In this document: positions 3,001 through 62,794 of the stretch, one piece after another
Numbering within the stretch: the stretch's first letter is position 1
Layout of the letters: each line of letters opens with the position of its first letter
NCBI RefSeq assembly: GCF_000143415.4
Contig: NW_003314298.1
Coordinates: forward strand, 603,014-667,013
Direction: 5' to 3'
Source of the DNA: Selaginella moellendorffii
Taxonomy: Eukaryota > Plantae > Lycopodiophyta
Length of the DNA stretch: 64,000 nucleotides
Program-made: the position numbers and the translations under genes
The notes under the pieces: model-generated
Seen by the model: the letters and a program-made list of their open reading frames with translations, nothing else
What the model was told of the DNA's origin: nothing
Databases searched by the model: none

Positions 3001-3134
3001 ACTAACACTTGAACAAGAGGGACTAATAAAGGGTCCAGCAATACCGACCTCCTGCCATCGTGGCAGTAAGGTAAGAGTGTCCGTAAGGACTAGCCGACAG
3101 GTAACTTTCGATACCCGAAGTCACATTTGCGACA
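1..3134 (-). mobile_element. LTR retroelement family A (LARD-like, non-coding internal region), 5' part; continues beyond the left edge of the window
   Basis: LTR 2031-3134 reads TGTCGC...GCTACA on the - strand. It is followed by a tRNA-iMet PBS (TGGTATCAGA, 2019-2028). Bases 1-2030 are the reverse complement of 18406-20103 apart from one ~350-bp indel. No gag/pol ORF. Confidence 0.85.
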
Positions 3135-3137
3135 CTA

Positions 3138-15208: not shown

Positions 15209-18200
15209 TGTAGCGCATGTGGTTTTTACCCTTTATCCTATGATGATTTACCATAGGATAACACCACGAAGCGGAACCTAAACCCTCTTTGTGCCACGTG
15301 ACAGATGCCACACGTCACATGCCATGTGTCCAAAGCACAGTGGTGCAGAACCCGAGTTTCAAGGCCTTGGGCCACTGAACGAAAGAACGGTGCCAAACTC
15401 CTAGGCTTGGAGCCAAGGAGTGATGGAACTGAACTATGGAGCAACTCCCGAGCATATAGCCCAAGGAGCGAAGGGACAGAAGCCCGGAGCGACTTGAAAC
15501 AGTCCTAGAGCAACCAGCATCCCAATGCCAAGACCAACACGGAAAGCGGAGCCAAACGGAGTCTGGCACTATTTCAGCATACCGGTGGCCTAATGTGAAG
15601 ACATGGGTACTCCACAAGCTAGCATGGTGTGGAGCTTGGGCTTAGACCTAAGCCGAACGTAGAACAAGGACAAGCACGCAAGCGGGAGCTAGACTATGCC
15701 TCAAGTTAGTCGGCCATGCTCGACCTACCCACTATCCCTACAATACATTTAGAACCCCCTACAGCAGCCCCCCCCTATACCCACTATCCCTACTATTTAG
15801 AACCCTGTACGCCCCCCCCCCTTGAGGAACACATGCTTTGGGCTTTCACCCGAAGCCACCCTTAGTATCAAGAGTTAATCTCTGGGACAAGCTTAAAACT
15901 TACTAAATATGAAATGGCGTTAGAATGCGAATTTGGACACGGGACGAACACCATTGTGTTCAGGCCAATCTCTACATTCCATAGATATGCCAAATTAGCA
16001 AATCTAGGCACTTTCCATAAATAGTATTTGGGACTAGAATGAGACTAACACAAAGGGTATGATAGCGAGGGTGTTTGGCAGACACGGTAAGCTATCATCC
16101 AGCAAATATTGAGGGACCAATCTCAATATCGTGGGAGTTCTTGATACTAGCAAGTGCAAGCCAATGACAAGAGTTTCTCAAACCGAGTCAAGTATGCTCA
16201 GCAAGAAACACATAGGAGTTCCTACCTTATGTTTATCCGATTTAAGTGCACGGTCAATTGATTAGTTTCTCAACTAGCTCAAGTGGGAACTGATAATGGG
16301 TCCAGCAATACCGACTTTTTGCCGTCGTGGTAGTAAGGAAAGAATATCCGAAAGGACTAGCCGACAAGTAACTTTCGATACCCGAAGTCATATTCACAAC
16401 ACTCTCCCCCCCTAGGGAAGATCGATATCCTCGTCGATGCATACTCAAGTCTAGAATACTGCCAAGGAAACAACTCCAAAAAAAATTCATGGTATTCACA
16501 CTATGTGAGAGATGCACCAATTTAAATGAGTTAGGAGGCAACCTCTTTGTCTAACGCGGATATGCTACCAGTTCAGACACCTTCCGGCCATCACCGACAA
16601 GGAAATGACTAACGAAGTCAGCCACCCTTGCTACTCTGGGTGTCACCCAGCTACAAAAGTGTGATATGCCCCTGCTCGCAAGGACATAGAGAGAAAAGTA
16701 ACACAAAAGGCATGATAGTGAGGGTGTTTGGTAGACACAATAAGCTATTATATAGCGATATTGAGGGACTAGTCTCAATACGCGAGGGTTCTTCTCAAGC
16801 CAGTGCAAGACAGAGCAAAAGAGAACTAACAAACCAGGCCAAGTATGCTCAACTAAATAGACACTTAGGAATTCCTTCTTTATGCTCATCCAGCCAAGTA
16901 TAAATGCTAAACCCAGTTTACTAACACTTGAACAAGAGGGGTTGACAAAGGGTTTAGCAATACCGACCTCCTGCCATCGTGGCAATAAAAAAAGAGTGTC
17001 CGTAAGGACTGGCCGATAGGTAACTTTCGATACCCGAAGTTACATTTGTGACACTCTCCCCCTCTAGGGAAGATTGACGTCCTCGTCGATGCATACTCGA
17101 GTCTACACCACTGCCAAGGAAACAACTCCCGAAAAAGTTCACAGTGATCACACTATGTGAGAAATGCACCAACTTAAATGAGTTAGGAGGCAACTTCTTT
17201 GTCTAACGCAGATGCGCTACCAGCTCAGACATCTTCCGGCTATTGCTGACAAGGAAATGACCAACAGAGTTAGCCACCCTTGCTGCTCTAGGTGTCACCA
17301 AGTTTAGTCCTTTCGGATATTCTTTTCTTACTGCCACGATGGCAGGAGGTCAGTATTGTTGGACCTGTTATCAGTTCCCACTTGAGCTAGTTGAGAAACT
17401 GGTCAATTGACCATGCACTTAAATCGGATAAACATAAGGTAGGAACTCCTATGTGTTTCTTGCTGAGCATACTCGACCTGGTTTGAGAAACTCTTATCAT
17501 TGGTTTGCACTTGTTAGTATCAAGAACCCCACGATATTGAGATTGGTCCCTCAATATTTGCTAGATGATAGCTTTGCCAAACACCCTCACTATCATGCCC
17601 TTTGTGTTAATCTCATTTCGGTCCTAAATACTATTTATGGAAAGTGTCTAGATTTGCTAATTTGGCATATGTACGGAATGTAGAGATTGGCCTGAACACA
17701 ATGGTGTTCATCCCGTGTCTAAATTCGCATTGTAGTGCCATTCCATATTTAGTAAGTTTTAAGCTTGTCCCAGAGACTAACTCCTGATACTAAGGGAGGC
17801 TTGGGGTGAAAGCCCAAAACTTGTGTTCCTCAAGGGGGGGGCGGGGGGGGGGGGTTCCAAATGTATAGTAAAGATAGTGTGTAGCTCAGGCATGGCTAAC
17901 CAACCTGAGGCATAGTCTAGCTCCCGCATGCATGCCTGTCCTTGTTCTGCATCCGGCTTGGGTCTAAACCCAAGCTCCACACCATGCTAGCTGGTGGAGT
18001 ACTAGTACCCATGTCCTCACGTTAGGCCACCGGTATGCCGAAATAGCACCAGACTCCATTTGGCTCTGTTTTGCATGCTAGTTTTGGCATTGGGATGTTA
18101 GTTGCTCTAGGGCTGTTCCAAGTTGCTCCGAGCTCCTGTCCCTTCGCTCTTTGGGCTGTATGCTCGGGACTTGCTCCGTAGTTTGGTTCCATCACTCCTT

Positions 18201-21200
18201 GGCTCCAAGCTTGGGAGTTTGGCACCGTTGCTTCGTTTAGTGGCCCAAGGCCCTGAAACTCAGGTTCCACACCACTGTGCTTTGGACACGTGGCATGTGA
18301 CATGTGCATCTGTCACATGGCATAAAAAGGGTTTAGGTTCTGCTTCGTGGTGTTATCCTATGGTAAATCACCATAGGATAAAGGGTAAAAACTACGTGCG
18401 CTACATTTGGTATCACAGAATGAGTCTCAGTGAGTACTATTCAATGAGATTGGGCAACTAGTCTCGTTGCATACGCAGAGATGAAAACGATGATCCGAGT
18501 GGGTACACGTTTGGGTGCTAAGACTTTGCAATCGTTCCTTGGGTATGGATTTGGTTACCTTTTTGTACCGTAATAATATGAGTTTGCTCTTGGGCTCATA
18601 AGATGGATTGAGACGTTCTGTTTACATAAGTTTTTGCTTGGGCTTATGAGTGAGGCATATTAGCAACTCGAGGTTACACTTTGAGTTGGCAGGATTAATA
18701 TTAGCCTATCAGTGGTCCCATGAGTTGTTCCAATGGTTCCATGAGTTGTTCCATGTATCGTGGGTGAAAGTAAACCTTCCCTGGGTTTACTATGAGTGGC
18801 AAATAAACTGGTCCGTAGCTGTTTAGCACGGCACTAGTGGATCCTTCCTAGGCATGATTATGAGTGGATCAATCAAGACTGTAGGGATTAATCTATTGAT
18901 TCGAGTAGTCACTGCCGTGCTCTCTTATAAATTTTTCTTGGATTGGACTAAAGGCAGTGCAAAAGCAAGCTTGAGGTTTAGTCAAAGATAAAACCGAAAA
19001 GAGAGTCATCAAGGACGAAGGATCAAACATGTAAATTATCTTCTCTTTCTGGAGAGGTGATTTGTAACGAGGTGTGACCCATTGCTCATATTCACAGTAT
19101 ACAATCAAGAGTCTCTACTTTGATGCATGTTGGAAATAATAGTCTTGCAAATGGTGAGTTATGGGATGGATAATGGTGAAATGCTAAACCATTTTGTCTA
19201 AGCTCACTATTAAAAGACTTGGGTTGCAATGCTCAATTTTTTTCTAGGGAACCTTGCTATTGCTCCTTGAGTAGCTTGGTGTTGGATTAGTTTTGAGTTT
19301 GGTAGGAAAGAAAGTGGCATGAGCTTGTCTGTATGGTGAACAAAAAGTTAATGGTGTTGGGTATTGTAAATCTCTATCAGTGAAATGTGGTATTTATGTT
19401 GCATTTTGTTGAATTGAGTTGACACTTGATTCTTACGTAAACCTTTGTAGTAATGACATGGGCGTTACTCGTAGTGTTGCTCGATTGATGATCAAGTCAT
19501 TGTGATACTCATATCATATCTATATAATAATGAGCAATGTGTTTATGAAGTTGCTTGGTTAAACGATGATCAACCCCAAAGTGGTTGATAGAAAAGTTAG
19601 TCTACTTACAAATAGTAGCATTGTAGTAGCTTTGACTGGATTTTTGATGGTGATCCATTGTGCTAAGCTTAAGTTGGTTCCTTGTTTCTTGAAGGGTTTG
19701 CCCATAAAGTGTTAGAAAAAGGTTGTAGCATTCATTTGCTATAGCTTGTCAGTTGATCTGTTAGCACATGGAGTAGATTGTGGATGGAGGTGTGTAGTTG
19801 GGACATTAATATCACTAGCACTTGTGTTAGTGGAAGTGGCATTGTTATTTCGAGTGATGAGGAATTTTCTTTAGACCTTGATTTTTCATGTCATTTTTCT
19901 TGTTAGTGTTTTGACTTCACATTGAATCTTGAAAGCGATTGACGAAGAGTGTAGTGCAACGTGAATATCCGAAGATATGGTCTTTGTGATTAAGCCTTGG
20001 ATGTTCAATTTGCATTTTGATGTTAACTTTTGGGGCTAAGGCAATTGAGTTGGATAGAGCCTGGAGTTGGTGTAAAAAAGTGGCTGTTACGCTTTTCTAA
20101 GAAAGGTGACCCTTGTGCCTTTCTTTTATAGCGTTATATTGGTGCCAGGTTGCATCTTGCATTTCATTTAGACTCTATGAAAGTAGTGAACTCTCACTGA
20201 TCCTGACTTGGTCTTGGTGGCCCTACACCTTGGTTAAGGATGGTGATGTCCAACTTAGTTGTTTGAGGCTAAAATGTTGGTACCCGTACTATAGCTTTGT
20301 CTATGAGGAGGTTGTGTACCAATATGAGTCCATCTTATGGTCTTCACTTTAGTTTCGATTGAGTGTTGATCATGCATAGCTAACCTCTTCATTGATTATC
20401 CTTATCAAAGGTTTTGTTTGATTATTGTTAGTATAGAATGATTTGCTGTTCTTCGGGATGGTAGATTGTTTCTTTGACAATGATTTTGCATATTTCTTTT
20501 TGATGGGATGGTTGATGATCTTTCTTGATGGTTAGTTGTTCTCTTTGATAGCTTATAGCTTTTCGCAATACCACAAGTTGTTTGTGGTTTGCTCTGGATT
20601 GGTCTCTTGGGTTTGAGACATCAATAGGACGTTGTTAACACTTGCTTAAGCAACTCTGGTTCCTTGGTATTGTTAACTAGGATCTATTCAGATTGACTTA
20701 TGCGATGGTTGGCATGACTAGGTGTTTGTTGGTCTTACCACATTCATTCTGTTTTGTTGATTATTGTTCGAGTTAGTTCTGATAAATTAGGATGTTATTT
20801 CCTTGGGTGATACATTCGCGAGCATTTTGCCTATCAGTCAATGATACTTTGTGTTCTTTGAGCTGTCTTTTGTAAGTTTTTTGGCATGCTATCTACAATC
20901 TTTGGTAGTTATGTTTTCTCATTGAGTGTACTTGATGATATACTTGCTATTGAATTTTGTTGGATGGTAATCCTATGTTTTCCAATGATAGTGATCTTGG
21001 TGGTTCCTATACTGTAATACTTGTTTATCAGATGATAACTTACGTGGAATACTTTTGTGTTCTAATCTAAGCTTTATTCACTGATAATTAAGTCTTTGAA
21101 TTTGGGCCAGTATAGGTAGACTGGCTTCGGCACTTTGTGTGCATGTTGAAATCTCTAGTCATGGGGTAGCTACTATCGATTGGTCACATCACCTGCCTCT

Positions 21201-28233: not shown

Positions 28234-29379
28234 AGTCAGAGTCAGGCTTCTGCCACGTGGCACAGGGGGGACTTAGGTCAGCCACGGCCATGACCATGTA
28301 CCCTGTTTTCTCTCTCATTAGCGTCTCCTCAGATCATTATCATGGTATCAGATTGTAGATCCTGATGGTTCATCATGCTAGGAGAGACCTGTGCTTTCTG
28401 ATCAACAACCACCGACTACACAGAGTATGGAACATGACGAGTAGTAGTGCTGCTGCCAGTGCATTGGAGCAGCGTTTAATCCCTTTGTACAAGGGAGATT
28501 TTGCAAATTGGGCTGCCCTCTTGAAGGTCGTTTTCTTGGTGTGATAATTACAATGGGATTGTCGTAGGCAAAGAATCTAACCAGCCCAAGGTGCTCTCGA
28601 ATTAGCATACTGGAAGCTGCACAATAAGTGAGCCCTATTAACAATGGGTATTGGTCCAGACAAGCAGTATATTCATCTTCTTGATCTTGATAACAATGCT
28701 CTAACAAATTGAACCAATTTAACTCAGTTTCTTAATGCTCAAATGGTTGAACATGTGGTCACATTGAAGGGTGAGTTTTTCACTTTAAAGATGGATCCCC
28801 AATTGCCTGTTGAGAAGTTTATCAATGACATTCTCTACTATGAGAAGCAAATTGGGGGTCCATCTTTAAAAGTGAAGAACTCACCCTTCAACATGACCAC
28901 ATGTTCAACTGTTTGAGCACCAAGAAATTGGGTTAAATTGGTCCAATTTGTCAAGATCAAGAAAATGAATATACTCCAATAAGGGCTTGCTTGTTGCGCA
29001 GCTTCCAGTCTGCTAATTTGGGAGCACCTTGGGCTAGTTCAGGTTCTTTGCCTGCAACAATCCCATCGCAATTATCACACAAGAAAACAACCTTCAGGAG
29101 GGCAGCCCAATTTGCAAGCTCTCCCTTGTACAAAGGGATTTAAACGCTGCTCCAATGCACCGGCAGCAGCACTACTGCTTGCCATCTTCCACCATACTCT
29201 ATGTAGTTGGTGGTTGTTGATCAGAAAGCACACTGGCATGGTGAACCATCAGGATCTACAATCTGATACCATCTGAGGAGACGCTAATGAGAGAGAAAAC
29301 AGGGTACATGGTCATGGCCGTGGCCACCAGCGTCTGACCTAACCGCCCCTGTGCCACTGGCAGAAGCCTGACTCTGACT
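28234..29379. repeat. Long inverted repeat (fold-back) built from a Ty1/copia LTR-end/PBS/gag fragment
   Basis: Arms ~28234-28806 and ~28849-29379 are reverse complements with small indels. CA-TGGTATCAGA PBS at ~28343. Gag-like IPLYKGDFANWAALLKVVF and LKGEFFTLKMDPQLPVEKFINDILYYEKQI on +. Confidence 0.85.
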
Positions 29380-39473: not shown

Positions 39474-40039
39474 CCTGTGATCCAGAGAGCCAACCTCGTC
39501 TGGCGCAGCCCGGGGGATCCTGGCGCCGCTCAAAGTCCAGGAGCTGGAAGTAGTGCAAGGCTTCGACGTCGGGCACACGAGCTCCGGCCAGTCCCCGGCT
39601 GAGCGGATCAAAGCTCTCGGGAACGCCATGCAAGTCCATATGGTGGCATTGCATCTCTCGGTGCTGGCGGACCTCTTCCCAACTGGTATCCGGGTCCTCT
39701 CGCTCTTCTCGGGGATCGGCGGCATCGAGGTGCCGTTGAAGCTCGGTATTCCAATCAAGTTCCTCGGGAGCGTCGAAACCAACGCGGTGGTGGCATAGAA
39801 CCAGGCAGCGAGGAACACATATCGTCTTGGGCGACGTGGCTGAGCTGTCTCGAGAGAGGATCGAGGAGCTCGCTGCTCGAGCCGAGGGTGGCTTCGATTT
39901 GGTGGCCGGTGGAAGCCCGTGCAACAACTTCTCGGGTAACAACAGGACTTGGATCACTGGCGATAAGTCGCGGCTCTTCTTCGACTACGTGAGGATTCTC
40001 ACAACAGTGAGAAGCATCATGGCCAAGTCGGCGTCGTGA
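39474..40039 (+). pseudogene. DRM: DRM methyltransferase C-terminal half (TRD, motifs IX-X and I-V), on the opposite strand to the middle part
   Basis: ANLVW, ERIKALGNAMQV, RVLSLFSGIGGIEV, FDLVAGGSPCNNFSGNNR and SRLFFDYVRIL. Contains a frameshift and a premature stop. Confidence 0.9.
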
Positions 40040-40600: not shown

Positions 40601-43600
40601 GCTGGAGCGACGAAAACAAAACCTCCCGGGCTCCCAGTAAGAGGTGTCGCGGAAGATTCAACCGCAGACAAGTGTGCAAATGTTAATAATTTTGATTCAC
40701 GCTTGCATTACAAAAAATATTCCACGTGCTTCAATTAAATTGTATTATTCGGCCGTATCTTTAAAATTTGATATCTCTTTTCTCTCTCCTATGTGGCACC
40801 TAATTTTACACTTCTTTCAGAGAGGTTGAAAAGAAGCAGAGACACACAAGAGAGATATATATATATATATATATATAATTTGCTTAACTTCTCAAAGTTT
40901 ATTTTATCAATTGGTTTTGCAACCAGAATTTATCCAACCATCAAGCTCTAGTAAATAGATAGTAATTCTACCCAATCATTCATTTATTCATTCATTCATT
41001 CATGTTTACATGGTCTTGTAGTGCCCCCTTCTGCATTAGTCCAGTTGGAGAACTACAAAATCACCTCTACAATGATCTTATGAATCCTCTCTAATCTAAA
41101 CTAGATCCAAACATAAAAAGGAAAGAAATACTTAACCATGTGCTATTGCAAAGATGTTGATGTTGAGATTGATGCACATCTCACAACCTTGATCCCCAGA
41201 AGGCAGTGAGTAAGATAGGCATGGAAGAGAAGAGTAGATGTTGAGCAAGTGGAGTGTATGTTATTATGGCCAAGGATATAAAAGACAGAAAGGGGATAAG
41301 TCTAGTGTGCTATCACCAGCCTATATAACCACTACATGCCCAGTCATCCAAGTCAAGAATTTAGACCGGAAGAAATTTTGATCTCAATTCCTAACTCAGA
41401 AAATGCCTTTGTGCGAAAATCACGATGCAAAATGCATGTACCTCTCTACTCTCCGACGACTAGAGTTGAGCAGCTCTTGCAGCTCAAGCTTCCATTGTAG
41501 TGGTGGTAGCAGTTGTGGTGTTAGCCTCTGGTTCTTCCTCATAGTCCTTGAGCTTGTCGCGAGTGTAGTTCTTTATGGCAGTCTCGAGCATCTGTAGTTG
41601 GGCCTTGAGCTCCATGTTCTCTTTGGTGAGGCAGGCATTCTCGAGTTGGTACTGCTGCGCTAACTCGAAAGATTCTCAGCAGGTGTTTGGTGTTGGGAGT
41701 CCATGAGCCTGTATAGTGCAAAGGATTCCCTTTACCTGATCGAGTTCCTGAGCCATGCTTGCATTTTCTCCTCGTGTGGACGTGCAAAAACATTGCGGAA
41801 GAAGCTCTCCATGTCGTCCTGCATGTACACCGCCATGTTGGAGTTATGGTACTGCTCCAGGAAGTTTGTAGGCATGGGACGGATCACTTTCGGTTGCTGC
41901 TGGTCCTGATGATGATGCTCATGCTGCTCCGAATTGTAGTGGTGGTGCTTGTTGTTAATGTGCTCATGATGAAATTGGCGTTGCATTGTTGAACAAGGCG
42001 GCTGCATGTTGTCAGCAGTGGTGTCTGGAGCAAATGTCTGTTGCAGCTCAGCTGGCTGCTGTAGCTCGGTTGGCTGCTGCAGCAAAGATGGCTGCTCCTT
42101 GTAAGCCACAAATTTTTCCTTTCCAATTTGCCAGCTTACCTCGTCTATCCGACCAACTCTGCCTTGGCTTGTGCTAAGTTCCCTCGCCAAGGTTCCCGCC
42201 TATGGTACCAGCTCCTACTTGGTCCTACTTGGTTTCAGCTACTCACTACACGAGCAACGGAGTGTTAGCCATCCATCTATGGATTCCCAAATCTCTCCCA
42301 ATCCCCTCCCCAGGTTAGACTGGACTTAAGGTTCGGCTACACTCCCCGCAGGCACAAGCAGCCAAGCACACCAAGCCTCCAGATTCCTAACACCCCTTGG
42401 TACCACAAGGTTTAATCATAGGACCCTCTAAATCCCAAGCCTTTGGTGCAGCACTTGCTTCGGGACGTCGGGGCAAAACACCGTGGCTTAATGGCTCAGT
42501 ATGGGTACCTCTACCCCCCCACTTCCATCCCGAAGGGAAGGCCCAAGCCCCTAGGAAGGGCGAGGACCAATGAGCCACAAGGTACTCAAGTGGGGCACCA
42601 CTCCATATGAGCCAGGAGCACCGCAGTCGGTTTCCCTTTCGGGAGTGGAGTTGCTCTTAAGCACTTCCCTGGGTGGCCCCTCCGGCACCACTCAAGCCCA
42701 TGCTCACTCCCACCCAAGGCCCCTCGGCCCCAGTCTCAACCTCAAGTCAGTTTGGAAGCACCATTGGAGAGTTCCTTCAAGACTGGTTCCTGGACCTCAC
42801 TATCCCTACTATACTTTTGGAACCCCCTACAGCCCCCCCCCCCCCCCCCCCCTGGGAGATGCACGCTTTGGGCTTTCACCCCTTGACCCTTATTAGTATT
42901 TGGACTTAGTCTCTGGCTCGATCTCGGACCCGATTTCGGATCCGACTTCGGATTCAGTCTCGGACTCGATCTCGGACTCGATCTCGGACCCGATCTCAGA
43001 CCCGACCTCGGACCCGACCTCGGACTCGGTCTCGGACCTGATTTCGGGTCTCGGACTCCGTCTCAAACTTGGTCTCGAACTTGGACTCGAACTCGGTCCC
43101 CGAGTCGGTCTCGGACTCGATTCCGGACTCTATCTCGAACTCGGCCCTAGAGTCGGTCTTGGACTCGATCTTCGACTTGGTCCCATCTGATGAACTCTTT
43201 GTCATTTTGGTCATGCTTTTGGGGTTCCTTTAGCCTACGACACTTCGGCGGGTTTGTTCCTTACAACTCCACCACCCATAGAAGAAGTTCGATGCCCACA
43301 TCGAACATTTCGTTTTATCCTACAACTTGTTGACCATGTCTCCGGGGGCATCCCCCCCACTTAGCGGTGTGCCTAAGTTAGCCTCCCCGGCCAAGAGCCC
43401 ATGACAACAGAATATAGGTGTCTCTATACCCCTCACCTCACCACGCCCTAGTATGGGGACTTGAACCCAACCTTGCTTTACTAGGGGGTTGGGACTTGAA
43501 CCCAACCTCCGTAGAATATGTCTACGGATTTGACATCCCCGCGGGGAGTCGGGCGTAGTGCCCTACGCCTGGTCGACCTATCCAACCCATGCTAATTAGC

Positions 43601-43664: not shown

Positions 43665-44850
43665 TTAATTGAATTTTGCACAAGTACATAGAGTTCTGCC
43701 ATGCAAAAATTCCTCCACTAGATCTCGCGCGTTCGCTAGGTTCTCCTCCGGTTCCCATGTTGCTTCGCAGTGTGGAAATCCTTTCCACTTCACATGGAAC
43801 TCTCTCACCTCGCGTTCTTGTTGCTTGCTCTTGCGCGCATTGAGGATGGCCTCGACTTCGTATTCCTCTTCCCCTTGGATAACCTTAGGTAAAGGTTTCA
43901 CTTGGTCCTTGCGAAGCGGATCCTCAAAGTACGGCTTAAGTAAGTTCACATGGAACACTGGGTGCACCTTCCCCATCTCTCAAGGAAGTCGGAGTCGGTA
44001 AGCCACTTTACCGATTTGTGCCTCAATCTCGTAAGGCCCCGCGAACCTGCTTAAGGAACTCAAGATCAATTCATTTACAGGAATACATGCATCTTTACCT
44101 TTGGGTCAACTTTCGGCTGATCCCACTTGGTAGCCTGAGGTTCTTGGTGTTCAGCCACACCTTCTCCCCAACTTGGAACTCTACATCTCGACGCTTTTGG
44201 TTTGCGTATTTAGTTTGCCTTTGTTGAGCCTGTTCCAAGGAATCCCTCACTAGATTCCAAATGCTGAGTCTTTCCGCCGTGAATGCCTCCACTGCGGGCA
44301 ACTCTCCATGATACTCGGCCACGCCGAGTTCCACAGGACCTTCAATAGCTCGCCCATTGATGACTTCCCATGGACTCACCCCGATACTCGAATGTGGTGA
44401 GTTGTTATAACACATTTCCGCAAGTCCCAAATGACTTACCCAATCGGTCTGATCTCCCGAGACATAGCATCGCAAATAATCCTCCAATTGCCTATTCACC
44501 CTTTCTGTTTGTCCGTCTGTTAAGAAGTGTTAGTGCTAACAACTTGACTTAATACCCCATACCTGTCTGTGGGTGATAGGCTGTGCTGAATTTCAACTTG
44601 GTGCGATACTGTTCCAGGAGAGTCCTCCAGAACCTACTGGTGAAGATCTTATCTCGATCTGAGATAATCTCTTCCGGTCTTCCCCGCACTTGAACCACTT
44701 GTTCGAAGAATAGATTCGCCACACCTTCCACATCCACTTCCGTTGTGGTGGGTATGAAATGTGCCATTTTCAAAAATCGGTCCACCACCACGAATATCGC
44801 ATCAAACCCCTCGCTTAGGGGGAGTCCTGTGATGAAGTCCATCGTAAGAC
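43665..44850 (-). pseudogene. Integrase core + GPY/F + chromodomain, interrupted by two introns (44517-44562, 44047-44098)
   Basis: TMDFITGLP...VVDRF...IISDRD...STAYHPQT^DGQTERVNRQLEDYLR...KLTQR^FAGPYEI...VHPVFHVNLLKPY...YEVEAIL...VKWKGFPHCEATWEPEENL. One TGA after AYRLRLP. Confidence 0.9.
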
Positions 44851-45719
44851 AGGTTATCGTTGAAATGCACCTTGATGGCCGCATCCAACGCTTCCTTGTA
44901 GTTAGTCAGGTTCCACCGCATCACTTCACCGCGAGCCCAGGTTTGCAAACCTGATATGAAGGCATGGAACGCATCCATATCCCCCATGTCCATGACAAGT
45001 ATCCTCTTTGCCATAAACCCATTCACATACTCCTGAATGGTTCCGGTCTGCTTCAGCCTATTCAGCTCGTCCCTTAGATGCAGAGTAGCATTCGGAGGAA
45101 CGTAAGTTGCGCGGATCCTCGCCTTCATCATTTCCCAAGTGGCCACCGGTCCTTCATTGGCCTCTGTCGTTCTCCACCAAGACTTGGCATTATCTGCCAA
45201 GTATGGTTTTGCACATGGGACCTTCTCCGAGCTCGGTAATCGCAACGCTCGGAAGTAATCCTCCATATCATAAAACCAATCCTCCACCACCTTATAGTCG
45301 TTCACTCCCTTGAAGACCGGTGGGGGCTTTGGTTTGTACTTGGGAACTGCCTGAGGGACTGATTCCACTTTGGTCTATTCGACCTTGTCTGGTTTTGCCT
45401 CAGTCCCTGCCGAAGGGTCCACACCTTCTGCGCTGCCAGCATCCGCAGTCTTTCGCCTTTTCTTGCGCTTCTCATCACGCTTTAGCTTGCGTACGAGAGT
45501 CTCCAGCAGGGCATTGGTCTGTGCCAATTGTCCTTCTAGCACATCCAATCGAGCCTTGGACGACCGAACCTCACCACCAGACTCCTGTTTGGATGTTGCC
45601 TCACTGGAGTCCTCCTCATGCAAGGATTCCTCATCCATAGCCTCCTGTTCGACCGGAGGCTCCAGCTCTGGAGGAGGTTCCGTCTCTGCCTGGGTTCGCT
45701 TATGTCCTGCCCTTGCCAT
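44851..45719 (-). pseudogene. Gag of the nested chromovirus (one in-frame TAG at 45375)
   Basis: ORFs 45375-45719 and 44802-45368 are in frame. Retrotrans_gag-like YLADNAKSWW...LRDELNRLKQTGTIQEYVNGF...FISGL. Confidence 0.85.
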
Positions 45720-48306
45720 CTCCCAACAATCCGCCTCTATCCTTCGCTAGAACTGAGGAAGACGCTCCGATACCAAATTGTAAGCCACAAATTTTTCCTT
45801 TCCAATTTGCCAGCTTACCTCGTCTATCCGAAAAACTCTGCCTTGGCTTGTGCTAAGTTCCCTCGCCAAGGTTCCCGCCTATGGTACCAGCTCCTACTTG
45901 GTCCTACTTGGTTTCAGCTACTCACTGCATGAGTAACGGAGTGTTAGCCATCCATCTACGGATTCCCAAATCTCTCCCAATCCCCCTCCTCGGGTTAGAC
46001 TGGACTTAAGGTTCGGCTACACTCCAGGCACAAGCAGCCAAGCACACCAAGCCTCCAGATTCCTAACACCCCTTGGTACCACAAGGTTTAATCATGGGAC
46101 CCTCTAAATCCCAAGCCTTGGGTGCAGCACTTGCTTCGGGACGTCAGGGCAAAACACTGTGGCCTAACGGCCCAGTATGGGTACCTCTACTCCCCCACTT
46201 CCATCCCGAAGGGAAGGCCCAAGCCCCTAGGAAGGGCGAGGACCAATGAGCCACAAGGTACTCAAGTGGGGCACCACTCCACATGAGCCGGGAGCACCGC
46301 AGTCGGTTTCCCTTTCGGGAGTGGGAGCTGCTCTTGAGCACTTCCCTGGGTGGCCCCTCCGGCACCACTCAAGCCCATGCTCACTCCCACCCAAGGCCCC
46401 TCGGCCCCAGTCTCAACCTCAAGTCAGTTTGGAAGCACCACTGGAGAGTTCCTTCAAGACTGGTTCCTGGACCTCACTATCCCTACTATACTTTTGGAAC
46501 CCCCTGCAGCCCCACCCCCCCCTTGGGAGACGCACGCTTTGGGCTTTCACCCCTTGACCCGTATTAGTATTTGGACTTAATCTCTGGCTCGATCTCGGAC
46601 CCGATTTCGGATTCGATCTCGGACTCGATCTCGGACTCGATCTCGGACCCGATCTCGGACCCGACCTCAGACCCGACCTCGGACTCGGTCTCGGACCCGA
46701 TTTCGGATCTCGGACTCCGTCTTGAACTCGGTCTCGAACTCGGACTCGAACTCGGTCCCCGAGTCGGTCTCGAACTCGATTCCGGACTCTATCTCGAACT
46801 CGGTCCTAGAGTCGGTCTTGGACTCGATCTTCGACTTGGTCCCATCCGATGAACTCTTTGTCATTTTGGTCATGCTTTTGGGGTTCCTTTAGCCTACGAC
46901 ACTTCGGCGGGTTGGTTCCTTACACTCCTCAGCACACTGGTATGGTGAAGATGGCTGCTCAGCAGGCTGTGGCAACGAATGTTGGTGCTGCTCGGCAGGC
47001 TGCAACGGTGGAGGCTGCTACTGCTGAGGCTGGTGTTGCTCGGCGGTCTGCTCCATGGGTGGTTCGTAAAAAATGTTGTGCCCCTACTCAATGGATGGTG
47101 GATTTGTAACCGTCTCAGGATTTTCAAGAATATCCTGCATCAGCGAAATGTGATCGTCCACTAGAATTGTTGTACTTGGAGACAGAGATTGTGCTGGTGC
47201 ATGCGGTGGTGATGGTGGCAAATCCGGCTGCAGTGAGCTAGGAGGCTACAAGCTCTTCGTTGATGGCTGTGTAGGTGCCAAACTCTGCTGCCGTTTTGTT
47301 TTGGATCTAGAAGTTCTCGTTGGTTGTTGTCGTCTCGGCACTATATGCTGGATTGTTTGCACATCACTGTCATCACTATCAATCTGTGGAGGCGCAATGT
47401 TTCTTCTGCCTTGTCCCCATGTCTTTCTTTGTGGAGTTGCTATTGTCTTTCACTGGACCTTTTTCTTCTCGGTATTCATCAAGTGTTCTTCAGCTTGGCA
47501 CTTTGAACTTTTTGTGACTTCATGCTGTGGAGGCAGAGGTGGTGGACTGTAGACCACTATGGCTTGACTTCTATGCGTGATGATGGCTCGGACATACGGT
47601 AGTACCAGTGTCCTCACACATTTCTTCGCGTTGAGTTCTCCTGCCACCTTCTTAAGTTCCCTACGAAACTTCGGGATCACATATCCTGCTAAATCCACTT
47701 TCTTCCCAGCTTGAAGATCCTCATAAATGAAGGCCACAGATCTGCTCACTGTCGTGGCAGTCTTCCAAAATTCCAGGTTGAGAACAAGGAACTTGAAGAT
47801 TTTGTAGAGCTCGTCCTTGACGTTGGAGAATTGCAAACTAAGCACTGAGTTGTTGTGCGTGGAGCAGAGACTGGCTCGCCTTCGTCTAGGAGACATAGAG
47901 CTGTTGCCACCTCCAAATCTTCAAGTTCAACTTGGCCGGTGGCGAGATCCATCAAGTGAGCCTTCTCGTTGCTCACTTGATTCATGAGATATTCTGCCAT
48001 TCGTTCTGCAAAGTTGAAGAGTCCGTGAGTGCGAGTCCAACACTTAACATCGTCATTGAATTGCCACTCAAGATTTTAAGAAAGGATGACGGTTTCTGTC
48101 TGGGATGTTTGCTTGGTTTGCATTGTGTCGACTCTTCGGTGCTGTTGAGAATGCTCTTGTACCTGTGATGCAAATAGAGGAAAAGATATGAGCACTCTTT
48201 CTATTCTTGTGAACACACTCTTTTTGTTTCTTTTGTGGGCACTCTCTTTTCTACTTGCTTTCTTCTTGTTTCTCTTGATTGGTGTGTTTCTTAGAATCTG
48301 ATACAC

Positions 48307-50800
48307 TCATTTGAGATGAGTGAAAACACCTAACTGACGATCACTCTCTAGCACTCTTGTGATCTCAAGATTTGCTTGCAACATTTTCCTTGCTGTAATT
48401 TCTTCTGCAAAATGCCCTCCAGAGCAACTAGCATGGGCCTCTTCTAGTAACTCGTATGTCTCTTCTTGTGAACATACACATCTTCTTAATATATTATCAT
48501 GTCCAATTCTATAGAGTCTTCCTCCGACGATTGAGTATCGTCGTGTCCTCAAGACAAATTGTTTCCTTTGATCTTGTGTGGTACATGATGTGGGAACCTT
48601 TGTAGTTGTTAAATAATTAAAGATTTCTTGAAGTGTATCATGGGTGGTAATCTTAAAAAGATGTGAATCAGGTAAGTCATCATTAGGATCTTGTATATTT
48701 TCTTCGGTTGTAATTCTATTGAGATGATCAGCTTGTTCATGGTATTTGCTTGGTTTGTGAACTATTTCGAAATTGAATTCTTGTAATAACAAAAACCATC
48801 TTGCTATTCGTCCGCTAAGGATGGGTTTGTTGAGTAGATGAATCAATGCTTGATGATCAACGAATATTTTGACGTTGTTGGAAAGTAAATAATGTTTGAA
48901 TTTGGTCAAGGCATATATCATGCCTAAGGCTTCTTTCTCTGTGGTTGTATAATTCATTTCAGGTGGAGAAAGTCGTCAACTTGCATAATATATGGGGTGA
49001 TCACGATGATCATCTTTTATTTGGCAAAGAATTGCTCCTAATGCATAGTTAGAGGCATCAACTTGTACGAGAAATTCTTGAGTCCAGTTTGGTTGGACCA
49101 GAATTGGTGCCTGTGTAAGTTTTTCTTTGAGTACCAAGAATGCCTACTGACATTCTTGAGTCCAGTGATAGAATTTGTCTTTCTTAAGTAACTCAGTTAA
49201 TGGTGTAGTGACTTTGGCATAGTCCTTGATAAATCTTCTATGGTAACCCATCTTGCCCAGAAAACTGCACAAGCTTTTAAGATCATGAGGTGGTTGCATT
49301 TTCATAATGACGTCGGTTTTAGCTTTATCGATTTGAATGTCTTGAGTGGAAACAATGTGGCTAAGTAGTATGCCTGATTTAACAAAGAAAGTACATTTTT
49401 CAGGATTCAGAGCAACTTGGTTTTGTCTGCATTTGATAAAACATTTTTTAAGGTATTCAAGGTGTTTGTTTTTAGGTCCAAAGACAATCCAAATGGCATT
49501 CGCATGTATGCGTATGCTCCCCATGGACTTATGAAAGTTGTTTTATGTTGATCCTTGACAGTTATATGTACTTGATTGTAGCCTGAAAAACCGTCAAGAT
49601 ATGAGTACATCTCATGTCCGGCAACGGCATCAAGTATTTCATCTGAAAATGGGATGGGAAAGGCATCTTTTGTAGTGGCATCATTTAACTTCTTGTAGTT
49701 TACACAGATGCGTAATTTCCCATTTTTCTTGGGTACAATGACTAAAGGTGATAGCCATTGGGCATTTTGTATTGGATATATGAATCCTGCTTCAAGGAGC
49801 TTGTTAATTTCAGCTTTTACTTTCTCAGCAAATGTTGGATTCATCCGGTAAACAGTTTGTTTAACAGGTTGAATTCCTGGAAGTAATTTGATTCGATGTG
49901 TATATAATTCAGGTGGTATACCCTTGAGGTCTTTATATGACCATGCAAAGACATCTTTATACTTAGTAAGGAGCATAGTAGCCTTAAGTTTAAAAGGTTT
50001 GTCGAGTTGTGTAGCTATTAAGATGTTTTGTGGGTTTGAGGGAACCTCTAGATTTAATTCTTCAATATCTTCATTGATATTTACACGAAGTTTGAATTCT
50101 TGATTTTCAATGGTGAGTGCTAGTTCGTCTTGTATATCTAGATGATATTCTATAGGTTTTAGTTGTTCAAGTTATATCGTTAGTCTTGCTTTTTGTATGG
50201 TGGTTTTTATTGTATGTTTCTTCTTTAAATTGGGTTGTTTTGAATCTTCATAGCCTTGACACTTGGTTATAGGAAGTATCCTGTTGAGGTCAATTTCTTG
50301 AATTGCCTTAAGTTTAGGATATGCTTCAAATAATATAGCTTCTTCAAGATCATCTAAGCCTTCTTGCCAATTGTATTCTTGAACTTGTGTTGGTCGAAAA
50401 CTTCTTGAGATTTTCTTGCTTGTCAATATTGATATTTTAGTTTGTCCTTGTTGGGATTGGATACATATCTCATATTCCATCCCATACTGTGCAGAAACAA
50501 CTTTATTAAGCCAAGGTTTGCATAACAAGATTTTGTAAGAAGATTCTTCAATCGGCATTTTTAACACAACAAAGTTAACTTTAAATTTATGTCCTTTGAC
50601 TGTCATAGAGACATCACGAATGATGCCTGCTAGTCTGACAACTCTTTGATCAGCCATGCGTACATTGAATTGTGCAATTTGTATATTGCCCAATCCTAAA
50701 GCTTTGCATAGTGCATATTCGATGATATTAACCCCAGAACCTCTATCGAGGATAACTCTTTCAATATGATTTTTGCTGATATGTATGTTGATACAAGGTA
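48307..50800 (-). pseudogene. Pol (protease, RT, RNase H, integrase N-terminus) of the outer gypsy element
   Basis: VILDRGSGVNII (PR), KKNGKLRICVNYKKLN...YLDGFSGYNQV...MPFGL (RT, YxDD segment deleted), NYTTTEKEAL...VDHQAL (RH), and EAHASCSGGHF followed by truncation. Confidence 0.9.
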
Positions 50801-50897
50801 CATTATCATCATAATCACCAGGTTGGATTCTTTGAGCTTATTCTTGTTGTGTTGGTTGAGATTGGTGTTTTTCTTGTATACGAGCTTCAGGGATCCT

Positions 50898-52661
50898 TCA
50901 ATTACATATTTTCAAGATTTGGTCTTTCATATATAGTGCTATTTGCAGTATTTGTTGTAGGGTTAAAGTAATTCTCTGTTGTAGTATGTGCTCGGCAATG
51001 GTTATATGCTCATCTTGAGTAAAGCTTAATACTTGAGTTTGGTTGTCTTGATTGTATATTTGATCATTAATAATTTCGGGATCTTTGTTTTGAAGCTTTT
51101 GTTGAATGGTGTTAAGTATTTTCTTACTCTTTTTCCACTCAGTATTCTCGATTTCTAATGCGTGATCACTTTCATCTTGTTCTTCATAATTATCAGGTTG
51201 TTGACATTCATATTGTGTTCTTGTGATTGCCAGAACTTCTGGTTCTTCAGTCCTTAATTGTTCTTCATCTTCTATAGCAACTGCTGCTTGAATTACTCGT
51301 GCTGTTGATGGTCTTCCACTAGGAGCTTGATTGACTCTTTGGTTTTGTGGATTGTATTGTTGTCGAATTTGATTTTCTTGTGGTTGATTTTGTCTTGGTT
51401 GATAATTCTGTTGCGATGCTTGATTGTTGTAATTATTATATTGCCTTTGTTGGCTTTGGTTGTAGTTGTTCCATTGTGGACGTTGATAATTGTTTTGGAG
51501 TCCATTGTATCGTTGTTGGTTGTAATTGCCTCTATAATCACCTTGTCCTTGATCATAGTTTTGATTTTGTGAGGGATTATATCCACGATTATATCCTTGA
51601 TTATATTGTTGATTATCTTGGTAATAATAGTTTCTTGGTGGTCTTTGTTCTTGATTGTTGTTTCCTTGATAATTTTGTTGTGGTGTTCCTTGTTGAACAT
51701 TTTCCACTCTTGAAACTTCAGTGGTATTCCTATATCGACAATTCTTGGCTATATATCCTTCTCTATCACAAATCTGACATTTGGGTGAATGAAATTTACA
51801 GTCTGAAATAGAATGTCCTTCATTTTTGCATTTTGTACAAAAGACTCCTTGTTTAAGTTCTGTTGAAGCTAACTTCTTCAATACATGTTTAATGTCTTTT
51901 CCCTGTGTCTGTTTCTTTTTGGTCCTGATTAGTATTTCTTCCTCTTCATCATCTAAGTCATCATTAATATGAGAAGATTCACCTTTAGTGAACTGCTTAA
52001 AACGTTTCTCAAGTTTTAAGATTCCTTGAGATAGTGAATCAACACTTTCTTCATCTGGTGTATCAGCTAATGCGATCATGTTGCGATAGGCTTCTCGTAA
52101 TCCTTGTATATAAGACAAACTCTTGCCTTTGTCGGTGATGAGATCTTTACATTTCTTTGCATGTAATTTGAATCATCTAGTATAGTCTTGTATTCCTTCC
52201 TTTGGTCGTTGTTTTATATTCTTAATGTGCTCATAATGCTCCTCTGGTGTTCCTCTAGCTGGGAATTGTTCCTTGAATTGTTCAAGTTTTTTGTCATGTG
52301 GTACAGAATCCTCTAGTGTATGATACCACTCAAGAGCTTTTCCTTTAAGTGTGTATGGGAAAAGTATGTCTTGATGATGTTCTTGATTGTTCATTTTGAC
52401 AATCTGGTTGAATTGTTTTACATGTAATTCTGAATCTTTTGACTTACTTCCTGTGAAAATTGGATATGTAACCATGCTTCCAATTGTACTCATCGGATTG
52501 ATGATTGCCATAGGTGGTTGTAGATTTTGTTGGTTGAGTTGTTGTTCTGGTGAGTCCCGATTTGAGTAATCTGGTGCTATGTATTCTGCTTCTTCAAATG
52601 CCTCAAACTCTGGGCCGTCTTTGATATTTAGTTCTTTGTTATTTTTAACTGGGTTGCTCAA
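50898..52661 (-). pseudogene. Gag of the outer gypsy element
   Basis: FPYTLKGKALEWY, KQRPKEGIQDY, CTKCKNEGHSISDC/CQICDREGY zinc knuckles and an N/Q-rich tail. Contains stops and a frameshift. Confidence 0.85.
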
Positions 52662-53172
52662 CTCGGCAACTTGAATTTGTTTATCCTCTTTGTCGTACTT
52701 GTTTAAAATCGTTTCTAAAATTTGTTACTATTGTTGTTCTAATTTCTCTTTTACTACCTTTTCCTTTTTCACTTCTCGATTCTTTTGTCGAAGATCTCTT
52801 TCTCGGATCTTGATTGGGTCTGGTTTCTGTTTGTACATTCAGTTTGCTAAGTCTTCTCAACTTGAATGTCAAGGTAAGTTTCCTGAATTTGTGTTCTGCC
52901 TAAATTGTCTTGAGTCAATTGTTGTTCTTCATAGATTGCAAAGTCAAGCTCTTACGTCTTGAGTCTGTTGCAAGTTTTGATTTTATAGTATAAATGCGAA
53001 GTCAAGCTTTTGTGTCTTGAGTCTTCAATTGAGTTTTTTTTTCTTTCTCAATTCTTCCCAAGTTTCTTCTCGAGGTCACTTTCCTGAGTCTAGCTTAGGA
53101 AAGGTCTTGTATTTGGAAAATCAGATGGTGTAAGTATGCACTATTTTGTTTGTTGGAAGGAGGCATGTTTTG

Positions 53173-59100: not shown

Positions 59101-60433
59101 GAGGTGTGCCCGACAGCAAGCGGCTGGTTCATATTTTCAAAGAAGCAACAGTCAAATGATTGTGGTACAGCACTGTATATTTGTGTTTTATTTTTAAAGA
59201 GAAGTTATTGGCAGAAACTTCCAACTTTCGAGAAAGCATGGTAGAGAATGTCACTTTTTGAGATACACTTCTGGAGAATCCCTGTTTTTCAAGGCAAGAA
59301 TCCACCATTCTCTCTTCATTTTCAGTGAGAAATTTGTCTAGCATGACTGGATTAACGACAGCTAAAATTTATGTGGAAAACTTTAGAACACAGAAGTTAC
59401 AAGTTGGTCTTTCGTTGAGAATGAGCATGTGCTCACTGCCCCATTAGTTTTTTGATAGGATGCTGTGGATTGGACAACAAGGACTTATGACATTGTTCTA
59501 TTGGTTCTTTGGATGAGCAATGCATCAAGGTTCAAGTGTGAAAGTTTTCAATCAGGTCTGAGCCAGTAATTATAGTCTCTTGAAGAAATTGTTAAGGAAT
59601 GTTACAATCAGAAGTCAAAATTTCCTAAATGGAACCTCTGACCTCTTTGTCATCAGAACTCCAGTTTTTCAAGCCTTCTGGATTGATGAGATCTCATCAA
59701 TCCAACACGCAGCTTTGGCAGCCACAATTATGTCTAGAGAATTGTTGCTCCTGCCTGTATCATGAGTCCCTTCAATTCCATGTCTCTGCAATTGAGGCAC
59801 TTGCAAGCTTGCTCGGTCCTTGATTAAAAAATCCATCAATATGGCCAAGGTAGCCTCTAGCAATACTTGTCTTTCTATTCTGAGCAGAAATGCAAAAGTT
59901 AATCCCAGGGACTTAACTATTGCCAAGGCACTATTTTTTAAAGTGAGTTGATGATGTTATGTGGCATCACTACTAAAAAAATTTAAAATTGGACAAAGCA
60001 GTAAAGTGTAAAAATGTGAACCATTTCCTTGTAATGGTTTACCTTTTGACAAACTAATTTGTCTCTTAAAAAGAAATTCACATAAGAACTATAAGAAGTT
60101 AGTGCAAGTAAAGCAGGAAGGGAAATGGTAATGGTAATAAAAGAAGAAACTTGGTGCATTGTTCTTGTCTTAAATAAATTTGCAACCATGAACAAAAAAC
60201 ATCTTTGAAGACTTAATTTTGTGTAGGCCAGCATAGCTGGATTCATGGCTAGTTTACAGGTTGTTTGACATGTTAGAGCCCAAAAATGGGCCTGGTATCC
60301 AAACAAAGCTAAGCAAGACCAGAACAGATTAGGGATCATGGCAGATTGGGAGCTTCCAATCTAACCTTCGTAAAAAGCAAGGAAGCGTACTTTAATAAAC
60401 ATACTCTGTTTATTCTAGTCAATATGTTTGACT

Positions 60434-61760
60434 ACTTGCGGAGAAGTGGAACCAATGCAAGTGGACGAGCCCGCATGAGCGTGAACCCGACCCCCTCACC
60501 CACGTCCACCTCTTTACCATCCGGTGTTGTCCAGTTGAACGATTAGCAAGAACAAGATGAATAGCAGTCAACCCCAAGTTCATCCCCGGGCAGGATCGCC
60601 GGCCAAAGCCAAACGTCATGAGTTCCACGGCCGCATTGAATTCGCTGCTCATCCTCTCCGGGATGAACTCCAGAGGGTTCTCCCAGATGTTTGGATCCCG
60701 GCCGATAGCGTAGAGGTTGATCAACACTTGGGTCTTGGCTGGGATCATGTAGCCAGCTTCTTCAAGCTTTCATACACGTTGATAACAAATTTGGAGATCT
60801 AGCGAGGATCAAACCTTTTAGACTACTTACCTTACACTCGGCGGTGGATTCGCGTGGAACAATGAGTGGCGGCGGTGGGTGCTTGCGCAGGCTCTCCTTG
60901 ACAATCGCGCCGAGGTACTTGAGCTTGGGAATGTCGGCCTCGCTCACCATGGTGCTACTAGCAGGGATCACGTCGTCCAATTCCTTCTGGGCTTTTGCCA
61001 AGATTTGTGGATGAAGAAGTAGCTCTATGAGAGCCCATTCTATCGCTGTGGCAGTCGTGTCCAGCCCTGCACTTCCTAGCAAGGACGGCCAACGAGTTAG
61101 TCAACACTCAAGTCAACCCCTAGTCTTACCAGCATGAGGCACCGGATGGTAAGATCTGACATGTTGTCGAGCGAAAGCAAGACGTCCAGGAAGCTCTCGC
61201 CGCCATGTCCTTGCTTGGCTATAGTCAGCTTGGGCAGCGAGAGATCCATCCATTTAAGCCATGGGACGTAATCGCCGATGTGTAGCCTCCCGCTCAGCTC
61301 GTTCCCCTGGCGGACCAAGCGGAGGAAATCGTTGGCACCGAAGGTCCGGCTCGTCCCAAACACGAGTGTTTGTATGATCTCCAAGGTGAGGACGGTGACC
61401 TCCTGGGTCATGTTCACCGTTCTTCCTAGATTCTGGGAGAGCATCGCCAGGAACTTCTCCATCTCCGCTTGCCTCACTGCCGCAAAGCTCCCCACGCGGC
61501 GCGCGGTGAAGAGCTCGAGCGTACAGATCTTGCCGAGCCCCCTCCATCTCGCGCCATAGCGCGCGAAGATGAGATCGTCTGGGAGGATCGCCTCGGCAAA
61601 CGTGAGCGATGGCCGCGAGGAGAAGGTCCTGTCGTGGGTCTTGAGGATCTCTTGGGCGATCTTGGCTGACGAGATGACGAGCGTGGGGGTGTAGCCCAGG
61701 CGGAGGTACAAGATCGGGCCGAGATCGAAGAGGATGAGATGCTTTAAAGCTTTGGCTGGC
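60434..61760 (-). pseudogene. Cytochrome P450 (CYP71-clan type) pseudogene, 3 exons
   Basis: [21 protein letters not shown] (I helix), KESLR (ExxR), PERM and FGFGRRSCPG (heme). N-terminal anchor missing, internal deletion after LPKL, and a frameshift after HLVLAN. Confidence 0.88.
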
Positions 61761-62794
61761 GCGCGACAAGGAAAAGATCTCCATCCCTGAGCGACCAGGA
61801 GATGATCCGGCGCCACATCATCAATTTCTTTTCGGCCTAAATCAGAGCGACCGCAAAAATAACGTCTTTATTTTTTAGAAAGGTTGTTTCTCAACGAAAG
61901 GCTTCCAGTTTATAGAAGTTTCCATGCGTCATTCACTGATGGTTTCAGCGTTTACCTAAATTCAACTTAAATCTATATTAAAAGTATTTAATGGTAGTGA
62001 TTTTACTGTGGTTAACTCCAATTTTATTGTGGTCAACACACTTTAGTTAATTAAGAAACAATAGCATTAAGGACTGATTTTAGGTTTAGAATTTGTACAT
62101 TTCACAATTTTTTAATCCACAATATTCAATGGGCCAACTTTTATGAATTTTGTGATTTATGAGCTGTGAGACAAAGGACGTTCATCCCTAGACAAATTTC
62201 ATGCATGAGCACACCGCTTGATAGACACTCTTGTTGTGAAAGCACTCTACTTTTATATGTTGTATTTACTTTTAATTGGGAGACTTTGAGAGTAGTTGAA
62301 TTTAAAATCAAAGTCTGGCATAGTTTTAATTGCATAACAAAACCAAGTCTCAATAAACAAGAAGAAAGAAATAAAAGTTTCCAATCCAACCTTCTTAACC
62401 ATGGGAGTCCATGATCACAGCTTCCCTCAAATCGTTACTGCCATCACCGATCCAGAAAGATATCCATGGACGAATCCCTGAAACTCTTTGTCCACCTCTC
62501 ACAAAGCCTCCCTTGCCCGTTGATTAGCATTGCCATTTTGAGGCTCTTAATCCAGATGGTCTTCACATGTTCTGTGAGTGTCGCTCACAGAAACAACTAT
62601 ATAGGCTCACCTATCTAGTTGCTGTACCCCTTGATACCTTGAATCCCTGGCACTGCCGTTGGACGCCCGGTCTGGCATGCCTGGCAAATGTGAGACTGTG
62701 AATCCCATGAGCCAAGTAGTGGATCATCTGGACCATCCAAATGCTGGTCTTCCATGTCATCTTCTGCTTCTAAGCCAGCTGATTTGCCTTCTGT

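Follow-up and report, generated by a model that had tools for sequence, protein, structure and literature searches.

A 2025 review describes plant LTR retrotransposons as generally intron-free and names Ogre and EVADE as exceptions. Dependence of Pol functions on splicing is already known, both in Ogre and in foamy viruses. In Ogre elements (Ty3/gypsy, Tat lineage), an intron has to be excised from part of the transcripts before the Pol domains behind it can be translated, and this intron persists in the genome (PMC6317226, PMC12786077). In the Ty1/copia elements BARE1 and EVADE, spliced RNA is translated and unspliced RNA serves as the genome; for BARE1, packaging draws on an uncapped, unspliced and R-bearing pool and translation on a capped and partly spliced one (PMC3735527, PMC5580714). 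Foamy viruses make their integrase from spliced RNA only (PMC7828637), and the Penelope-like elements retain introns through retrotransposition (PMC8557442).

The chromovirus of the lycophyte Selaginella moellendorffii described here resembles each of these systems in part. It is not of the Ogre type, since both of its introns lie inside the integrase. In BARE1 and EVADE the intron is coding sequence, and its splicing removes Pol capacity (PMC3735527, PMC5580714), whereas the spikemoss introns are non-coding, contain stops, and their splicing creates integrase capacity. Splicing in foamy viruses removes gag and yields a subgenomic RNA (PMC7828637); the spliced RNA of the spikemoss element, in contrast, has almost its full length, and no cis-acting signal would be lost from it unless its ends differ. 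Penelope-like elements are non-LTR elements with another mechanism, and their characterised introns are located either upstream of the core or in the 5′ UTR (PMC8557442). Searches of the open-licence literature brought up no account of introns in this family, nor of any within the integrase core of an LTR element; subscription papers, Repbase or supplements may contain one.

Structure of the element and of its two introns

The window, i.e. the whole stretch of DNA analysed, comprises 64,000 nt of the S. moellendorffii genome (assembly GCF_000143415.4, contig NW_003314298.1, positions 603,014 to 667,013), and all coordinates refer to it. An earlier note made from these letters alone had ascribed paired LTRs, a primer binding site (PBS), a polypurine tract (PPT) and a target-site duplication to the element. 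All four were found, the PBS and PPT as PBS-like and PPT-like sites and the target-site duplication as the 5-bp AGGAG (Table 1). The PBS-like site was called against what we take to be the Met-type motif. The two LTRs, with TG..CA ends, are 96.5% identical, which on presumed substitution rates corresponds to an age of 1.4-2.6 My, to be taken as a rough guide. Together with gag, and with an integrase followed by a GPY/SH3-like module and a chromodomain, these features are those of a Ty3/gypsy chromovirus.

Table 1. Features of the chromovirus copy in the window, in transcriptional order.
Feature	Position	Strand	Details
Target-site duplication AGGAG, 5′ side	46925..46929	-	
5′ LTR	45779..46924	-	1146 bp, TG..CA
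PBS-like 12-mer, initiator-Met type	45764..45775	-	one mismatch to motif
gag, 5′ part	44852..45719	-	ATG at 45719; truncated by internal deletion; Retrotrans_gag PF03732, E 1.7e-13
Internal deletion junction	44850..44851	-	2-nt TG microhomology, not GT..AG
Integrase exon 1, as kept	44563..44851	-	core with two predicted catalytic aspartates; rve PF00665, E 6.2e-10
Intron 1	44517..44562	-	46 nt, phase 1, GTATGG..TAACAG (GT..AG), 37% GC
Integrase exon 2	44099..44516	-	418 nt; predicted catalytic glutamate at 44505-44503
Intron 2	44047..44098	-	52 nt, phase 2, GTAAAG..AAGCAG (GT..AG), 35% GC
Integrase exon 3	43665..44046	-	GPY/SH3-like module (SH3_Tf2-1, E 1.8e-7), chromodomain (Chromo, E 1.5e-16)
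PPT-like sequence	43266..43278	-	
3′ LTR	42100..43265	-	1166 bp, 20-nt G run
Target-site duplication AGGAG, 3′ side	42095..42099	-	

The window copy is a dead, non-autonomous derivative. The rest of gag, the protease (PR), reverse transcriptase (RT) and RNase H (RH) domains and the integrase zinc finger are all missing from it, one in-frame stop interrupts gag (45377-45375), and another interrupts exon 3 (43982-43980), the exon that contains the chromodomain (about 43862-43707, minus strand). This second stop is a private change of the window copy, as probable-RNA contigs and DNA-like contigs read a sense codon there. Family copies elsewhere run on past 44851/44850 on both sides, seen as loose ends in DNA as well as probable-RNA contigs. 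Given the 2-nt microhomology and the lack of splice signals at this junction, it represents an ordinary internal deletion; a gag-integrase fusion arising as a splice product was considered and discarded, the lost segment having no GT..AG ends. A further AT-rich GT..AG stretch of 50 nt lies at the end of the chromodomain exon (43687-43638, minus strand) and is a possible third intron, the excision of which would open the frame to 43522. The contig from run X19 (see below) reads through it with one inserted base, and the spliced contig from run X15 stops at 43718, short of the stretch.

Recomputation gave the same coordinates, lengths and ends for the two inserts in the integrase as the earlier note, and their excision at GT..AG in silico restored frame and conserved motifs, with AYHPQT-DGQTERV at the first junction and SRKLTQR-FAGPYE at the second. 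The note's further claim that each insert would introduce a stop if kept also held: the stop lies four codons into intron 1 and comes immediately in intron 2. Only splicing brings exon 2 into the frame of exon 1. A branch-like motif is present in each, CTAAC at 17 nt from the 3′ end in intron 1 and TTGAT at position -23 in intron 2; both inserts also have GT..AG ends and a YAG acceptor, as in U2-type spliceosomal introns, and the coding DNA on either side is of higher GC content (49-51%). Their size, which had been called host-like, is close to that of two candidate host introns in the window, of 54 nt each. Ends of the GT..AG type arose by chance in shuffled inserts with probabilities of 0.009 and 0.014, or 1.3e-4 jointly. 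If all GT/GC..AG pairs up to 8 nt from the ends are considered, the right phase is given for intron 1 by the 46-nt pair alone and for intron 2 by the 52- or the 49-nt pair; probable-RNA contigs use exactly 46 and 52 nt.

Short direct repeats of 4-5 nt flank the introns: ACAG (GACAG with the family letter at 44521) at the first and AGGT at the second, which is bordered at both ends by an AG|GT context. A duplication-type origin may be compatible with such repeats, splicing being unaffected either way; at 4-5 nt, with the obligatory AG included, they are too short to name the route of intron gain. Introners, a mobile family, occur as many similar introns at unrelated sites; introns 1 and 2 have no stretch longer than 8 nt in common, and the window contains no second copy of either.

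Homologous proteins align to the three integrase pieces in three different frames, breaking off and restarting at the inserts. With the introns removed, indel-free alignments were obtained across the first junction in all 174 covering homologues and across the second in 133 of 148 (set of 181 homologues, largest indel 9 residues); a cruder regular-expression count of the junction motifs, giving 143 and 122 of 181, was set aside in favour of these alignments. Since the homologues are predicted proteins, this establishes colinearity at the protein level and not always intron-free DNA. Metagenome contigs contributed 11 related loci, of which 10 are short GC-rich fragments; in the locus L005, the DNA itself joins exons 2 and 3 in a single frame, without intron 2.

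Assignment to the SM1-Galahad family

The window element is a deleted copy of a high-copy S. moellendorffii chromovirus family, and matches SM1-Galahad by its features. The assignment was made on the described features of that family. SM1-Galahad was reported in 2012 with hundreds of copies, none intact and many deleted, with LTRs of 1076/1146 bp containing G tracts, a Met PBS, and PR, RT and RNase H (PMC3350952). Its main ORF of 3885 bp stops at the integrase core and has no chromodomain; it is followed by two short ORFs, left unexplained, of which the first has 316 bp and the second, with the chromodomain, 309 bp (PMC3350952). The window element has in common with it LTRs over 1 kb with G tracts, the Met PBS, the ORF breaks, a group I chromodomain (chromo box FHVKWKG) and the host, and a 5′ LTR of 1146 bp appears both in the window copy and in the 2012 listing. 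Naive ATG-started ORFs in the window measure 318 nt and, for the one that includes the chromodomain, 309 nt, against the 316 and 309 bp reported. In PMC3350952 the three ORFs are treated as separate; here they are the three exons of one gene. Neither ‘intron’ nor ‘splic’ occurs in its main text, and its supplement text contains neither ‘Galahad’ nor ‘intron’; sequence tables or Repbase entries could carry a mention of the introns. The single consensus ORF of 3885 bp implies, if the assignment is right, that no frame-breaking intron exists upstream in gag, PR, RT or RH.

The sister family SM2-Galahad, intact and also present in hundreds of copies in the same genome, has a single ORF of 4731 bp that includes the chromodomain (PMC3350952). 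In the same study SM1 grouped with Galadriel, with shifting positions, and REXdb leaves some Selaginella chromoviruses unclassified; the word ‘Selaginella’ is absent from the supplementary text of REXdb. The best named relatives of the integrase are Haematococcus proteins with 46-49% identity. Protein searches returned no close family member and none from another Selaginella, the best match having 48-50% identity over the exon; the gag protein query gave no match, and viral contigs contained no relative.

Retention of the introns in family DNA

The possibility that the inserts are unique to this copy, which would have spoken against the earlier note, does not apply, as they are present in family contigs of two sequencing runs. 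The DNA run X1 (about 200 million letters) has 50,854 contigs on the element. Its summed contig depth, which is not to be taken as copy number, is 466k inside the 3′ end of intron 1 as compared to 619k at the exon site 44452, and is not depressed in the bin with intron 2 (960k). Depth drops in the middle of intron 1, to 54k-114k at 44540-44542; we read this dip as indel variation, indels being listed there, and lower intron occupancy could also give it. No joint at either intron was present among the best 15 of at least 118 joints in X1. In X4, a small run of unrecorded kind that is DNA-like, with all 30 bins covered, none of 65 contigs shows a joint across either intron, and gap-free contigs run through both, with a depth of 36.8 at intron 1 and 36.2 at intron 2. 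A diverged copy in X4, with 47 differences in 288 nt (about 16%), also has intron 2. Intron-less genomic copies thus do not dominate the family; rare ones may exist.

Splicing in probable RNA

Three studies, represented by the runs X15, X17 and X19, provided contigs of probable RNA. This status is an automated guess. The RNA nature of these runs is supported by their small size (26-37 million letters) and by the few contigs, 2-10 each, that they have on a high-copy family, compared to the 50,854 of X1.

For both introns, the check proposed in the earlier note, a search for joints at 44516/44563 and 44046/44099, returned the exact joints. A single 2,500-nt contig of X15 (depth 11.2) skips 46 and 52 nt at these positions, with CT..AC ends on the plus strand in both cases. 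It extends 1,464 nt upstream into sequence that the window copy lacks and so derives from a longer family member; for the family, PMC3350952 gives the domain order PR-RT-RH-INT. X17 has intron 1 in both states, skipped at a depth of 10.1, where the shorter flank measures 30 nt, and retained at 6.3; its intron 2 is retained (depth 2). In X19, intron 1 is retained in a contig that shares six variants with the spliced contig of X15, five of them in exon 2 and absent from X4 (44134, 44386, 44389, 44392 and 44443) and the sixth at 44597. One haplotype hence occurs in both forms, spliced in X15 and with intron 1 in X19, and this speaks against an intron-less lineage having given rise to the spliced contig. 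Overall, intron 1 is removed exactly in two of the three probable RNA runs and intron 2 in one of three (one contig, one study). The retained forms could be DNA carry-over or pre-mRNA. We consider it very likely that both inserts are real, family-wide and spliced introns.

Three raw RNA runs, of each of which about 12% was covered, gave 70, 28 and 44 reads, almost all on a piece of the LTR. They contain no intron joint, their internal cover being too thin to count either way. The reads of all three runs fall on one strand of this 350-nt LTR piece (45964-46317) and carry constant foreign sequence on either side, as expected for an LTR fragment in another transcript elsewhere in the genome.

Coding constraint and catalytic residues

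Differences between family members were tested for synonymy in 39 of the listed 40 of 159 difference rows, one gag row being dropped, i.e. in a small and filtered sample. Read in the spliced frame, 13 of the 15 sites that differ between X15 and X4 are synonymous, as compared to an expectation of 34% for transitions (p 4e-5); in exon 2, the frame of which only splicing opens, 6 of 7 are. The changes private to the window copy are synonymous in 10 of 24 cases, as under neutral decay.

Under the D,D(35)E assignment, which we take to apply to this integrase, the predicted catalytic residues are D5, D65 and E101 in spliced numbering. Intron 1 interrupts codon 97 and so precedes E101 by four codons. 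The earlier note had proposed that production of integrase and chromodomain depends on splicing, and the logic of frames, stops and predicted catalytic residues bears this out at the level of the sequence.

A proposed mode of replication and its alternatives

We propose that the family probably replicates from unspliced RNA, that spliced RNA alone would give an active, chromodomain-bearing integrase, and that the two RNA pools are sorted. The introns would have been gained in this lineage, as the homologues are intron-free and the sister SM2-Galahad has a single ORF. Translation of unspliced RNA would yield a polyprotein that ends four codons into intron 1, i.e. Gag-PR-RT-RH and a dead integrase stub; as the stop precedes the third of the three predicted catalytic residues, this product would be without the catalytic glutamate. 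RNA that keeps intron 2 alone would encode a catalytic core lacking the GPY/SH3-like module and the chromodomain, and fully spliced RNA the whole polyprotein. Splicing would in this way set the ratio of integrase to Gag and not that of Pol to Gag. According to the 2025 review, Ty1 loses an inserted intron when it transposes. Each new LTR copy passes through RNA and the DNA of this family keeps its introns, so that the RNA that is reverse-transcribed must be mostly unspliced. We infer from this a selective copying or packaging of unspliced RNA, most likely with separate pools as in barley BARE1, the packaged one unspliced and the translated one spliced. In its fullest form, to which we incline with some reserve, host-type introns were gained in the catalytic core of the integrase and were kept through to hundreds of copies by reverse transcription of only unspliced RNA, splicing acts as the on-switch of integration, and retention of intron 2 alone could yield an integrase devoid of its chromatin-targeting domain.

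Sorting of RNA pools may be dispensable if splicing is merely inefficient, so that most packaged RNA bears introns and the rare intron-less copies fail to take over, being held back by poor expression, integrase excess or silencing. The comparable spliced and unspliced depths in X17 (10.1 and 6.3), the exclusively retained form in X19 and the compatibility of the X1 data with rare intron-less copies are all in keeping with this idea. If about half of the RNA is spliced, however, a few rounds of unbiased copying would suffice to eliminate both introns, barring counter-selection of intron-less copies, yet intron 2 is found in a copy about 16% diverged, and the multi-copy consensus of 2012 is broken at the same places (PMC3350952). 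We regard this explanation as unlikely. The family might instead be integrase-defective, its unspliced RNA supplying Gag, PR, RT and RH, the integrase of SM2-Galahad acting in trans and splicing being incidental. An intact sister with hundreds of copies next to an SM1 family with no intact copy (PMC3350952) fits such a situation, but the lineage variation in exon 2 that is synonymous at 6 of 7 sites in the splice-only frame, the exactness of both cuts and the restriction of the exon 3 stop to the window copy do not, and we hold it to be quite improbable.

The remaining two explanations call the introns or the retrotransposition itself into question. Spliced contigs might originate from an intron-less DNA subfamily or processed copy, the inserts then being never-spliced footprints in a dead lineage. 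The guessed RNA status of the runs and the short direct repeats around the inserts leave some room for this; it is opposed by the haplotype found spliced in X15 and unspliced in X19, by the lack of any joint in the 65 contigs of X4, by the features of the inserts, both of which are AT-rich and of host-like size and have canonical ends and a branch-like motif, and by the contrast between 26-37 million letters with 2-10 contigs in X15-X19 and about 200 million letters with 50,854 contigs in X1. Its probability seems to us very low. Finally, an element that spreads as DNA, by way of a Ginger-like transposon or of segmental duplication, would spare its introns reverse transcription, and integrase-derived DNA transposons are known in Selaginella from the literature. 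Such a mode of spread is hardly credible for an element with gag, PBS- and PPT-like sites and an LTR pair bordered by a 5-bp target-site duplication; the window also contains a solo LTR, and the family is reported with PR, RT and RNase H (PMC3350952).

Replication from unspliced RNA, the reading we prefer, bears on several wider points. The textbook test for retrotransposition asks whether introns have been lost on the way through RNA, and this family keeps two that contain stops. The RNA that is copied and the RNA that is translated must be kept apart although they differ by 98 nt. The choice of genomic RNA by LTR elements becomes testable by counting intron-less and intron-bearing copies in assemblies as well as spliced and unspliced RNA in particles, and the family offers two intron gains that can be dated and from which hundreds of copies descend. 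The introns also explain why no ‘intact’ copies of so abundant a family were recorded in 2012. Annotation pipelines based on ORFs may likewise class intron-bearing autonomous families as dead.

Other features of the window

A diverged and apparently solo LTR of the same family occupies positions 4090-5508 on the plus strand, with 75-90% identity in three segments. Related repeats of about 1.1-2.7 kb (429-3136 and 15209-20019; 80-85% identity) have a motif of roughly 110 nt in common with the LTR of the element. A second Ty3/gypsy remnant, AT-rich and with gag-, PR-, RT- and RH-like frames interrupted by stops and frameshifts, lies at 48307-52724 on the minus strand and ends near 48300. The minus strand also carries an open frame of 1001 codons (8881-11886), absent from the protein collection as searched, in which a P-loop-like motif and, near 9122-9069, a candidate 54-nt intron that keeps the frame are found, and a cytochrome P450-like gene (60400-61870) with apparent frameshifts and a candidate 54-nt intron near 61130-61077. 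A frameshifted fragment at 39481-40039 (plus strand) resembles the C-terminus of a DRM-type cytosine methyltransferase, judging from the motif IRVLSLFSGIGG, which we presume to be characteristic of such enzymes. An imperfect inverted repeat of 1.1 kb, 79% self-complementary, is located at 28234-29379.
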